Shown: positions 33,789 through 36,743 of the stretch, in pieces | Position numbering within the stretch: position 1 is the stretch's first letter | Layout: every line of letters begins with the position of its first letter | From: Escherichia coli | Lineage (GTDB): Bacteria; Pseudomonadota; Gammaproteobacteria; Enterobacterales; Enterobacteriaceae | Assembly (NCBI RefSeq): GCF_003334385.1 | Contig: NZ_QOWN01000028.1 | Length of the DNA stretch: 60,886 nt | Reading direction: 5' to 3' (one strand) | Made by a program: the position numbers and the translations under genes | The notes under the pieces: model-generated | Databases searched by the model: none | Seen by the model: only the letters and a program-made list of their open reading frames with translations | Told to the model about the DNA's origin: nothing

Positions 33789-33796
33789 TTCCAGAC

Positions 33797-33821
33797 GCGC
33801 CATCGTTAGATGGCGCTTTTT
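33797..33821 (+). terminator. Perfect hairpin plus T-run immediately after ydcL; may also be the subterminal hairpin of the adjacent IS element
   Basis: GCGCCATC-gtta-GATGGCGC followed by TTTTT. The tnpA stop codon on the opposite strand lies inside the loop. Confidence 0.6.
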
Positions 33822-34312
33822 ATCCGGTGCGCCGTAAAACCCCATCCTTCAGGGCGGGGATATAAGGCGCGGTTTTCCACCTGACCAGGTGTTTGCTGTT
33901 GTTCAATGTATTGGCGGATGACGGATATTGGCGCACCTCCGCAGCTACTGGCAAAATAGCCAGGACTCCACAAAACGCCTTTGTAGTAATACCTGAATGC
34001 AATATCTGGTCGATCTCGTCGCAGTCACCTACCCGATACGCCTTTGAGGCTGTTTACCAGACTGGATATCGCCAGTTTGGGAGGATAGTTAATTAACAAA
34101 TGGACGTGATCTGGTTCGCCATCCATTTCAACCAGTTCAGCTTCAAAATCAGCACATACATTTGAAAAGTAAGTGCGTAGTTTTTCTGTCGCGTCATGGT
34201 CAAAAATCTGGCGTCGGTATCTGGTGACAAAGAGCAGGTGAACATGCATCAGGAAAACACAATGCCTTCCACGCCGGATATCGGTTTCTTTTTTCACAGA
34301 CCAAAGTATCAT
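33806..34312 (-). pseudogene. tnpA: IS200/IS605-family Y1 (HUH) transposase TnpA, interrupted by an in-frame TGA
   Basis: ORF track 34025..34312 (95 aa) contains the HUH motif (HVHLL). The same frame continues past TGA at 34025-34027 into ..SPGYFASSCGGAPISVIRQYIEQQQ.., the conserved C-terminal segment of this transposase family, ending at a stop at 33806-33808. Confidence 0.65.
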
Positions 34313-34319
34313 TTGACCT

Positions 34320-35528
34320 GTGAAACGATTACAGGCATTTAAATTCCAGTTAAGACCCGGTGGTCAACAGGAGTGTGAAATGAGGCGCTTCGCAGGCGCA
34401 TGTCGTTTCGTTTTCAATCGTGCTCTGGCACGTCAGAATGAGAATCATGAGGCCGGTAATAAATACATCCCTTACGGGAAAATGGCTTCCTGGCTGGTTG
34501 AGTGGAAAAATGCCACTGAAACGCAATGGCTTAAAGATTCTCCCTCACAGCCATTGCAACAGTCACTGAAAGACCTTGAGCGGGCTTACAAAAACTTCTT
34601 CCGGAAGCGGGCTGCTTTTCCCCGATTCAAAAAGCGGGGACAGAATGATGCATTCCGCTACCCGCAGGGCGTTAAGCTCGATCAGGAAAACAGCCGTATT
34701 TTTCTGCCGAAACTGGGCTGGATGCGCTACCGGAACAGCCGTCAGGTCACGGGTGTTGTGAAAAATGTCACTGTCAGCCAGTCCTGCGGTAAGTGGTACA
34801 TCAGTATTCAGACAGAAAGTGAAGTATCAACTCCGGTTCACCCTTCAGCATCAATGGTCGGGCTGGATGCTGGCGTGGCTAAACTCGCCACGCTGTCAGA
34901 TGGCACAGTCTTTGAGCCTGTAAACAGTTTTCAGAAAAACCAGAAGAAGCTGGCGAGACTTCAGCGACAGTTAAGCCGCAAGGTCAAATTCAGCAACAAC
35001 TGGCAAAAGCAGAAACGCAAAATACAGCGACTGCATTCCTGTATCGCAAATATCCGCAGGGACTACCTTCACAAAGTCACAACGGCCGTCAGCAAAAACC
35101 ACGCAATGATAGTCATTGAGGATTTGAAGGTCAGCAACATGTCAAAGTCAGCAGCGGGTACGGTCAGCCAGCCGGGGCGCAATGTCCGGGCAAAATCAGG
35201 TTTAAACCGTTCGATACTGGATCAGGGCTGGTATGAAATGCGCCGCCAGCTTGCGTACAAGCAGCTCTGGCGTGGCGGTCAGGTGCTTGCTGTTCCGCCA
35301 GCGTATACAAGCCAGCGTTGCGCGTACTGTGGTCATACAGCGAAAGAGAACCGCCTGTCACAAAGTAAATTCAGATGCCAGGTATGTGGATATACAGCGA
35401 ACGCCGATGTAAATGGCGCTCGCAACATTTTAGCGGCGGGGCACGCCGTTCTTGCCTGTGGAGAGATGGTGCAGTCAGGTCGCCCGTTGAAGCAGGAACC
35501 CACCGAAATGATTCAGGCGACAGCCTGA
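34320..35528 (+). CDS. insQ: IS200/IS605-family TnpB (RuvC-like RNA-guided endonuclease family; IS609 transposase B)
   Basis: 402-aa ORF starting at GTG. Conserved N-terminal [10 protein letters not shown] motif; RuvC-like motifs ([14 protein letters not shown]; [11 protein letters not shown]; DVNGARNI) and a CxxC..CxxC zinc finger (CAYCGH..CQVCGY) are all present in the translation. Confidence 0.85.
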
Positions 35529-35567
35529 ACGTAGCAGGGATCCACGTCCTTCAGGGCGTGGAGGATG

Positions 35568-36743
35568 TCAATATCGGTTTCTGTCAGCGATTAAATTCAA
35601 CACCACGTAACAAACGCCTCCGGCAATTAATCCCCAAAACGCAGAACCAATCCCGACCAGCGTCAATCCACTTGCCGTTACCAGAAATGCCACCACCGCC
35701 GCGTCTCGCTCACGCTCATTATGCAGCGCCTGATACAAACTGCCGCCGATGGTACTTAACAGCGCCAGACCTGCCAGCATCTGGATCCAACTTACGGGCA
35801 GGGCAGCCATCATCCCGGTAATGGCACTACCAAACAGACCTGCGAGCAAATAGAAAATGCCTGCAACGGCAGCGGCCAGCCAACGTTGATCTTTATCCGG
35901 ATGCGCTTCCGGGCTTTGGCAAATAGCCGCGGTGATTGCCGCAATACCGACGGAATAAACGCCGAAAGGGGAAAAAACCAGTGCCAGCAATCCAGTAAAT
36001 ACAATTAATGGCGAAACAGGAGCCGAATATCCAGCTGCTTTCATTGCTGCGATACCCGGTGCGTTTTGCGATGCCATCGTCACCAGAAAAAGGGGGAGTG
36101 CAACGCTCAGGCTGTGAGCAAACGAAAAATCAGGGGTAATATAAGTGGGGAGAACGGGTTTAAAGACAACATCAGTTGTGACAACGTCACCTTGCGCGAT
36201 GACGATCACGATCCCAATAATCATCGCGGCAATTACCGCATAGCGCGGCGCAACGGCCTTGGTTGCCAGCCATACCAGCAACATACTTCCACACAACGTA
36301 AATTGACCGTCCAGACTGGCAAACGCCTGTAAACCAAAGCGTAATAAAATCCCGGCAAGCATTGCCGCCGCAAGCGAGTGCGGAATAATGCGCATCAGAC
36401 GAGCAAAGAGTCCCGTTATGCCGCAGAGGACTATTAGCGCGTTGGTGACAATAAAAACGCCGATGGCTTCGTTAAGTGTTAGTCCCTGCAATCCGGTGAC
36501 CAACAAAGCCGCGCCAGGCGTTGACCATGCGGTGAGAACAGGTACGCGATACCATAATGTCAGAGTCAGCGTACTGACGCCCATTGCCAGCCCCAGCGCC
36601 GTCATCCAGCCAGAGATTTGTGCAGTGGTGGCTCCGGCGACAATCGCTGCTTGCCAGATTATTGCCGCTGAACTGGCGTAGCCAATTAATACCGCCAGAA
36701 ACCCCGCCAGTAGCGTGGGTGGAGGAATAGAAAACAGACGCAT
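35568..36743 (-). CDS. ydcO: BenE-family (benzoate-transporter-like) inner-membrane protein
   Basis: ORF track 35568..37004; the internal ATG at 36743 gives 391 aa (MRLFSIPPPTLLAGFLAVLIG..); highly hydrophobic polytopic protein. Confidence 0.82.
   Translation of the reverse strand: MRLFSIPPPTLLAGFLAVLIGYASSAAIIWQAAIVAGATTAQISGWMTALGLAMGVSTLTLTLWYRVPVLTAWSTPGAALLVTGLQGLTLNEAIGVFIVTNALIVLCGITGLFARLMRIIPHSLAAAMLAGILLRFGLQAFASLDGQFTLCGSMLLVWLATKAVAPRYAVIAAMIIGIVIVIAQGDVVTTDVVFKPVLPTYITPDFSFAHSLSVALPLFLVTMASQNAPGIAAMKAAGYSAPVSPLIVFTGLLALVFSPFGVYSVGIAAITAAICQSPEAHPDKDQRWLAAAVAGIFYLLAGLFGSAITGMMAALPVSWIQMLAGLALLSTIGGSLYQALHNERERDAAVVAFLVTASGLTLVGIGSAFWGLIAGGVCYVVLNLIADRNRY

Follow-up and report, generated by a model that had tools for sequence, protein, structure and literature searches.

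A defective IS609 copy at the ydcL-ydcO junction of Escherichia coli with a decayed tnpA, an open tnpB and a predicted guide RNA

The ydcL-ydcO junction of Escherichia coli raises the question of what keeps a tnpB gene open once the transposase gene beside it has decayed. In the 60,886-nt stretch of DNA analysed here (the window; contig NZ_QOWN01000028.1 of RefSeq assembly GCF_003334385.1), this junction is occupied by a copy of IS609, an element of the IS200/IS605 family whose identity and anatomy are near certain; the copy is vertically inherited and immobile, with tnpA and tnpB divergent as in IS605. A sequence-only reading of the window had proposed that the element, although probably immobile, may keep a functional complex of TnpB and its guide RNA (omega-RNA). 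The TnpB motifs, a covarying RNA structure and the constraint on tnpB across 19 orthologous copies support such a complex as a predicted function. The answer judged probable, if well short of secure, is that a functional TnpB-omega-RNA complex would still be made and would be what selection retains.

Lesions and polymorphism in tnpA and tnpB

Translation of the minus strand (34312..33884) confirmed that tnpA holds its HUH motif (H69-V-H71) and its C-terminal segment (...RQYIEQQ) in one frame, interrupted by a single in-frame TGA (34027..34025). With this stop replaced, the product scored 143 bits against the NCBIfam model NF033573 transpos_IS200 (cut-off 55) and aligned with the TnpA of IS608 (2A6M; E=8.5e-19), the HUH motifs matching and Tyr135 falling on the catalytic Y127. 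As the TGA at codon 96 precedes Tyr135, the catalytic nucleophile is removed. Comparison with other copies of the element, which had been suggested as a check, showed that the ancestral codon was not TGG, as had been supposed, since the intact TnpA of an O157 strain (143 aa) has TTA (Leu) at codon 96. It also revealed a second lesion, in which the natural stop TAG has become CAG (33883 G), lengthening the frame by 33 codons relative to the O157 copy. Overall, the window copy departs from the intact O157 copy in codon 96 (Leu to TGA), in the missing tnpA stop, at 12 amino acids of TnpB and in its insertion site.

The TGA is genuine. That it might be an error of sequencing or assembly, with TnpA intact, as the sequence-only reading had allowed, is refuted by the exact 57-mer with the TGA, present in 2598 independent E. 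coli records; moreover, an internal stop is annotated in W3110 and other complete genomes, and the stop-loss lesion is independent of the TGA. Among 758 new insertions in K-12 mutation-accumulation lines, none was of IS609 (PMC5009759), and W3110 carries a single IS609 copy only. With a TnpA cut off before Tyr135 and no insertions in K-12, the window copy is a defective member of IS609, shown to be unable to excise or transpose on its own, and the earlier expectation of immobility was borne out.

A junction-specific query detected the left-end junction in 3267 of the 5426 complete E. coli genomes searched. A further 1773 matched only the flank half of the query; these ~1,770, roughly one genome in three, appear to be without the element at this site. 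The number of genomes with >=80% element coverage (4309) was rejected as a measure of locus occupancy and replaced by 3267, because it includes copies at other loci.

Nineteen orthologous copies were then compared: those of the window and of W3110, ten sampled across the identity ranking, and seven found through the junction search. The stop-loss lesion was common to all 19, and further tnpA lesions were L96* (the TGA; 6 of 19), Y76* (7 of 19, six of them with an additional 5-bp deletion), E62* (4 of 19) and a 1-bp deletion (4 of 19). Beyond the stop loss, this amounts to five distinct disruptive lesions, three nonsense (E62*, Y76*, L96*) and two frameshifting deletions. One copy (L099) had the stop loss only, its frame being otherwise open. 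The TGA was rejected as one ancient knock-out common to all orthologues, since only six of the 19 carry it. Polymorphism in tnpA comprised 4 synonymous, 13 missense and 3 nonsense sites, with a ratio of non-synonymous to synonymous polymorphism (pN/pS) of 0.96, and tnpA at this locus looks to be evolving neutrally.

In contrast, tnpB was open in all 19 copies. Of its segregating sites, 23 were synonymous and 24 non-synonymous (pN/pS 0.30), a significant deficit of non-synonymous changes (binomial p=5e-5), and the chance that all five lesions would fall by length alone in the 429-nt tnpA rather than in the 1209-nt tnpB was 0.0012.

The start codons of the two genes, the ATG of tnpA (34312) and the GTG of tnpB (34320), are divergent and lie 7 nt apart, so that each promoter must lie within the other gene and the 5' parts of the two transcripts would be mutually antisense.

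TnpB, its predicted omega-RNA and the target

The TnpB protein possessed the Pfam domains HTH_OrfB_IS605 (PF12323), OrfB_IS605 (PF01385) and Cas12f1-like_TNB (PF07282), and scored 379.8 bits against the NCBIfam model NF040570 guided_TnpB (cut-off 100). Its residues 3-376 aligned with the TnpB of ISDra2 (8BF8/8EXA/8H1J; E=1.9e-54), with D183, E267 and D363 on the catalytic D191, E278 and D361. D183 and D363 were present in 68 of 68 aligned sequences, and the zinc-finger cysteines were C334/C337/C353/C356. The claim that TnpB retains its RuvC-like motifs and zinc finger is thus confirmed, the acidic triad and the four cysteines standing in register with ISDra2 TnpB. Furthermore, the majority residue was kept at 130 of 130 columns that are >=95% conserved among 67 Gamma-/Betaproteobacterial homologues, and no cryptic inactivating substitution was found at these columns.

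The guide RNA had been expected to arise from the 3' end of tnpB and the right end of the element (about 35350-35570). To examine this region, the last 170 nt of 31 non-redundant homologues were aligned (alignment A1) with the invariant terminal 12-mer of the element as anchor; anchoring on the first in-frame stop was dropped as unusable because several homologues are pseudogenes. The RNAalifold consensus contained 38 pairs, 25 of them with compensatory changes. A long-range pairing within it (columns 15-17 with 187-189, three pairs) was dropped as unsupported, because its bases are near-invariant. Among the remaining 35 pairs, 94.4% of cells were paired, compared with 83% in column shuffles and 37-49% with slid partners; 25 of the 35 showed double changes, and none of 500 shuffles matched the observed values on any of five measures. 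The helix 35434-38/35444-48 lies within the coding sequence and still had 9-14 compensatory sequences per pair. The anatomy of 35434-35571 is therefore predicted to be that expected of an omega-RNA scaffold, in line with the expected origin of the guide RNA. A sense transcript spanning the 3' end of tnpB was reported in 2015 from E. coli K12 RNA-seq data, in the paper that defined the archaeal sotRNAs (PMC4615843).

The Rfam scan gave only sub-threshold matches, to HgcC (RF00062; 21.9 vs 50), sot0042 (RF02656; 15.5 vs 88) and RAGATH-18 (RF03064; 25.4 vs 44.9). Those to HgcC and sot0042 cover 35465-35581 and 35524-35562, and with scores far below the gathering thresholds the window RNA is not a member of either family by Rfam criteria. 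The RAGATH-18 match, at 35455-35498, corresponds to the second and third predicted omega-RNA helices, which suggests that RAGATH-18 may form part of TnpB guide RNAs.

On its 3' side, the right end is followed by TATCGGTTTCTGTCAGCGAT. This flank is antisense to the last ydcO codons, which agrees with the earlier view that the guide would read into the 3' end of ydcO. Relatives carry TTTAT or TTTAC as their 5' flank, and in most of them the last base of this flank covaries with a base of the left end; the predicted target-adjacent motif (TAM) is therefore TTTAT. In the empty allele of strain GU2018_CL13, TTTAT is directly followed by TATCGGTTTCTGTCAGCGAT, giving a perfect match to both the TAM and the 20-nt guide; the empty allele of Nissle has one guide mismatch, at position 14. 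No other guide match with <=3 mismatches was found in the 60-kb window, and the only known TAM-flanked match is the empty site. As the occupied chromosome has GTCAA, not TTTAT, before the guide sequence, it would not be a target and should be immune.

The first 11 guide nucleotides (TATCGGTTTCT, 35572-35582) recur on the same strand at 34279-34289, in the 5' part of tnpA, where they are preceded by GCCGGA, which is not a TAM. By a rough estimate, the chance expectation of such a match from the first guide base is <1e-3, and the repeat may be a coincidence.

Taken together, tnpB and the ~140-nt structured RNA encoded by its 3' end together with the right end are intact, and a TnpB-omega-RNA complex is most likely still formed. 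Its fixed guide (TATCGGTTTCTGTCAG...) and the TAM TTTAT would specify the uninterrupted ydcL-ydcO junction. The target would then be the empty allele, arising either by excision through a TnpA acting in trans or by recombination with one of the ~1,770 genomes that match only the flank half of the junction query, and cutting of that allele would favour retention of the element, as in the homing model proposed for TnpB of the IS605 family (Meers et al., bioRxiv 10.1101/2023.03.14.532601). Element-level selection through empty-allele cutting would explain purifying selection on tnpB during the decay of tnpA, and copies without tnpB would tend to be lost and hence would not be seen. This known homing role offers the most economical cause of the constraint on tnpB and the RNA. 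A further step, put forward only tentatively, is that TnpB and its omega-RNA, without TnpA, may act as a guardian or drive of the occupied allele against the empty ydcL-ydcO allele, which would explain persistence across E. coli, or may have been taken over for a host function; as a guardian, the complex would cut whenever recombination or transfer brings empty and occupied alleles together.

Domestication for a host function unrelated to element retention, such as defence or regulation near ydcO and ydcL, would have precedents in exapted relatives of TnpB. Purifying selection on tnpB after the loss of tnpA and the fixation of the element at one locus in 60% of genomes would fit it, as would the fact that the right end supplies the ydcO stop, with any transcript reading out of that end being antisense to ydcO. 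However, the RuvC triad is intact, unlike that of nuclease-dead TldR-type regulators, and the only known TAM-flanked guide match is the empty site, with no other at <=3 mismatches in the window. About a third of the searched genomes, those matching the flank half only, appear to do without the element at this site, and no literature was found tying insQ (tnpB) to a phenotype beyond expression lists. Domestication is accordingly regarded as very unlikely.

Evidence weighing against retention of a functional complex

Several observations weigh against a complex that is still made and selected. The TnpB of IS608 (HpyTnpB), the element whose TnpA sites most resemble those found here, was inactive in the assay of Meers et al. 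(bioRxiv 10.1101/2023.03.14.532601) although its motifs are intact. Scanning for promoters yielded no sigma-70-like plus-strand candidate for tnpB or the RNA, and the ydcL terminator lies directly upstream of the element. The TGA allele also occurs in IS609 copies at ybcL-ybcM (L095, O111:H8), where it is accompanied by the stop-loss lesion, and at yjfZ-ytfB (L096, SCU-172), in mosaic haplotypes. A common TGA allele at three loci implies either that copies have undergone gene conversion with one another or that defective ones have been mobilised in trans. In addition, one copy (L006) has a clustered tract of three single-nucleotide polymorphisms identical to the O157 copy, and the selection signal, itself moderate, is confounded by exchange between IS609 copies. 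Restricted to private tnpB mutations, those not seen in three paralogous copies, pN/pS was 0.38 (p=0.028). In strain MS 196-1 (L104), tnpB is split by an IS3-family element at the same locus, with flanks 100% identical to the window; this disruption is recent. Counted as a sixth event, it gives, by our own arithmetic, a probability of ~0.006 for at most one of six disruptions falling in tnpB. Finally, the comparison covers 19 of the 3267 copies, a small sample not drawn at random.

These observations can be read as signs that the whole element is a decaying relic, silent or inactive and forming no omega-RNA-protein complex, in which tnpB has either not yet been broken or has been refreshed by conversion from active IS609. 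The lack of a plus-strand promoter candidate, the inactive IS608 TnpB (Meers et al.), the evident exchange between copies, the weaker signal for private mutations and the one strain with a split tnpB all agree with this explanation. Conversion, however, would mend tnpA as well as tnpB, and a relic would leave without explanation the five disruptive lesions in the 429-nt tnpA against none in the 1209-nt tnpB of the 19 copies (p=0.0012), the non-synonymous deficit in tnpB (p=5e-5) and the retention of all 130 conserved TnpB positions. Pairs of the predicted RNA are likewise kept, for example through a G-C to G-U change at 35469/35480, and a K12 transcript has been reported (PMC4615843). A relic is thus considered unlikely.

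The TGA might instead be leaky, so that a little full-length TnpA, with Trp96 and the 33-residue extension, would be produced, leaving the element attenuated but not dead. Termination in E. coli is weakest where C follows the UGA, and the codon context here is TGA-C. The presence of the same TGA allele at three loci could mean that TGA-bearing copies moved, and the copy with only the stop loss has an otherwise open frame. Against this stand the neutral evolution of tnpA at this locus (pN/pS 0.96), with its additional nonsense and frameshift lesions, and the zero IS609 insertions in the K-12 mutation-accumulation lines (PMC5009759); gene conversion accounts equally well for the common allele, the copies being mosaics. 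A leaky TGA therefore appears highly improbable, and retention of tnpB and its RNA through a complex that would still be functional is the preferred reading.

Element ends, locus and relation to known systems

The gene order around the element is tehB-ydcL-[element]-ydcO-sutR, and the region is 99.9% identical to the K-12 W3110 locus, with the same annotation. In RefSeq, the W3110 tnpA is labelled as an 'IS200/IS605 family transposase' pseudogene ('internal stop; ... missing C-terminus') and insQ as an 'RNA-guided endonuclease InsQ/TnpB family protein'. The uninterrupted ydcL-ydcO junction was found in Nissle 1917 and GU2018_CL13, where ...CGCTTTTTAT is directly followed by TATCGGTTTCTG... (in a longer form, ...GATGGCGCTTTTTAT followed by TATCGGTTTCTG...), and the difference between occupied and empty sites is exactly 1748 bp. 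A second IS609 copy, at yjfZ-ytfB in the O157 strain, is also flanked by TTTAT and is 97.7% identical to the window element over the full 1748 bp; RefSeq names its TnpA 'IS200/IS605-like element IS609 family transposase'.

On the basis of the empty sites and of the O157 copy at another locus, the ends of the element were revised from 33789 and 35567 to those given in Table 1, the earlier right end being 4 nt short. The hairpin at 33797-33816 was rejected as part of the element, as it is the ydcL terminator in the flank. The element ends in GTCAA on its right side, and its insertion point is 3' of TTTAT, within the ydcO stop codon. The empty allele reads ...CGA TAA and the occupied one ...CGA TAT TGA; the right end thus provides the ydcO stop and YdcO gains one Tyr (...NRY instead of ...NR). 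The element entered the ydcO stop codon, 3' of TTTAT, by single-strand 'peel and paste' transposition.

Table 1. Coordinates of the IS609 copy and associated features in the window.
Feature	Position	Strand	Remark
TTTAT	33819..33823	+	TnpA target site (cleavage site C_L) and predicted TnpB TAM; abuts left end on 5' side
IS609 element, 1748 bp, no target-site duplication	33824..35571		comparison with empty sites and other-locus copy
Left-end subterminal hairpin CCCCATCC-TTCA-GGGCGGGG	33840..33859	+	GTAAAA (putative DNA guide G_L) just before
tnpA pseudogene (Y1 HUH transposase)	33884..34312	-	codon 96 = TGA (34025-34027); original stop lost (33881-33883 = CAG)
tnpB (insQ), 402 aa, GTG start	34320..35528	+	D183 34866-34868, E267 35118-35120, D363 35406-35408; zinc-finger cysteines within 35319-35387
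Predicted omega-RNA scaffold, over tnpB 3' end and right end	35434..35571	+	covariation, 31-homologue alignment A1
Predicted omega-RNA helices	35434-38/35444-48; 35455-59/35492-96; 35464-70/35479-84; 35503-04/35537-38; 35508-16/35525-32; 35541-49/35554-62		
Right-end hairpin (35541-35562) and terminal GGATGTCAA	35541..35571	+	cleavage site TCAA at its end
ydcO stop codon TGA, provided by IS right end	35568..35570	-	empty vs occupied allele
Predicted guide TATCGGTTTCTGTCAG (up to CGAT)	35572..35591	+	directly 3' of right end; antisense to last ydcO codons

The two subterminal hairpins lie on the same strand and have CCTTCAGGGCG in common, and the element has no terminal inverted repeats. The left-end hairpin is kept in relatives. 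Among 16 loci with a matching left end, the flank was readable in 14, and all 14 had a T-rich pentamer 5' of the element, TTTAT or TTTAC in 10 and CTTAT, CTTAC, GTTAC or TTGAT in the rest. In most relatives, a change in the last target base (TTTAT vs TTTAC) goes with a change in the base directly 5' of the left-end hairpin (GTAAAA vs GTAAAG), locus L014 being an exception. This covariation fits IS608-style recognition of the cleavage site by a DNA guide, and hence TAMs that may be retargetable within the clade. The terminal 12-mer GGAGGATGTCAA (35560-35571) occurred with <=2 mismatches, and mostly exactly, in 69 of 80 related loci of Gamma-/Betaproteobacteria (TnpB identity 58-94%), several of whose contigs break precisely at the 12-mer. 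A 2057-nt contig of Streptomyces mutabilis JCM 4400 (L024) also carries an IS609-like element, with a TnpB 82% identical to that of the window and an enterobacterial-type left end; it is probably a contamination of the Streptomyces assembly.

Among known systems, IS608 (ISHp608) of Helicobacter pylori is the mechanistic model for TnpA, and the cleavage-site and DNA-guide names used here, as well as the pairing between the two, are those of IS608. Like the window IS609, it encodes a Y1 HUH transposase, with the HUH motif and catalytic Tyr aligned, inserts 3' of TTAC/TTAT-type sites without duplication and has a right end in TCAA. In both, similar subterminal hairpins lie on one strand, and covariation with the target is mostly seen at a base on the 5' side of the left-end hairpin. 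In IS608, however, tnpA and tnpB are co-directional, whereas the window element has the divergent IS605 arrangement and the target TTTAT.

ISDra2 of Deinococcus radiodurans resembles the window element in the D/E/D triad and zinc finger of its TnpB, which are in register with those of the window protein, and in an RNA, predicted in the window element, that is encoded at the 3' end of tnpB and the right end and takes its guide from the flank. The alignment of the two TnpB proteins is nevertheless clearly divergent, and the TAM of ISDra2 is TTGAT rather than the TTTAT predicted here. Archaeal sotRNAs and HgcC are sense transcripts across tnpB 3' ends; the predicted omega-RNA would resemble them in this respect and in a UUCA-loop hairpin close to its end. 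TldR proteins, nuclease-dead repressors derived from TnpB that target promoters, are likewise TnpB homologues kept without a working transposase; the window TnpB differs in its intact RuvC triad and in a guide that corresponds to the native flank, not to a promoter target. The role proposed here is the same as that of the TnpB/IscB homing systems of IS605-family elements in Geobacillus stearothermophilus (Meers et al.), where the guide RNA targets the scarless donor joint and recombination restores the element. There, an active TnpA makes the target; the window TnpA being dead, the target must come from a TnpA acting in trans or from recombination with empty alleles.

The element, its tnpA pseudogene and the RNA-guided label are already known from RefSeq, and the mechanism is textbook for the family. 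The analyses presented here contribute the precise ends of the element, a second lesion in tnpA, the assignment of guide and TAM with a natural perfect target, the covariation-backed RNA and the contrast between a neutral tnpA and a constrained tnpB at one orthologous site, a contrast that is not surprising to a specialist. In the literature on IS609, insQ and TnpB in K-12, no functional study of this TnpB was found, insQ appearing in gene lists only.

E. coli K-12, the standard host in which foreign TnpB, IscB and Cas12 are tested, itself encodes a TnpB that appears intact and has a fixed guide. Should this TnpB be active, it would provide a simple natural system, in the best-studied bacterium, for asking what keeps tnpB alive after the loss of the transposase, and whether that is selfish retention against the empty allele or a host role.

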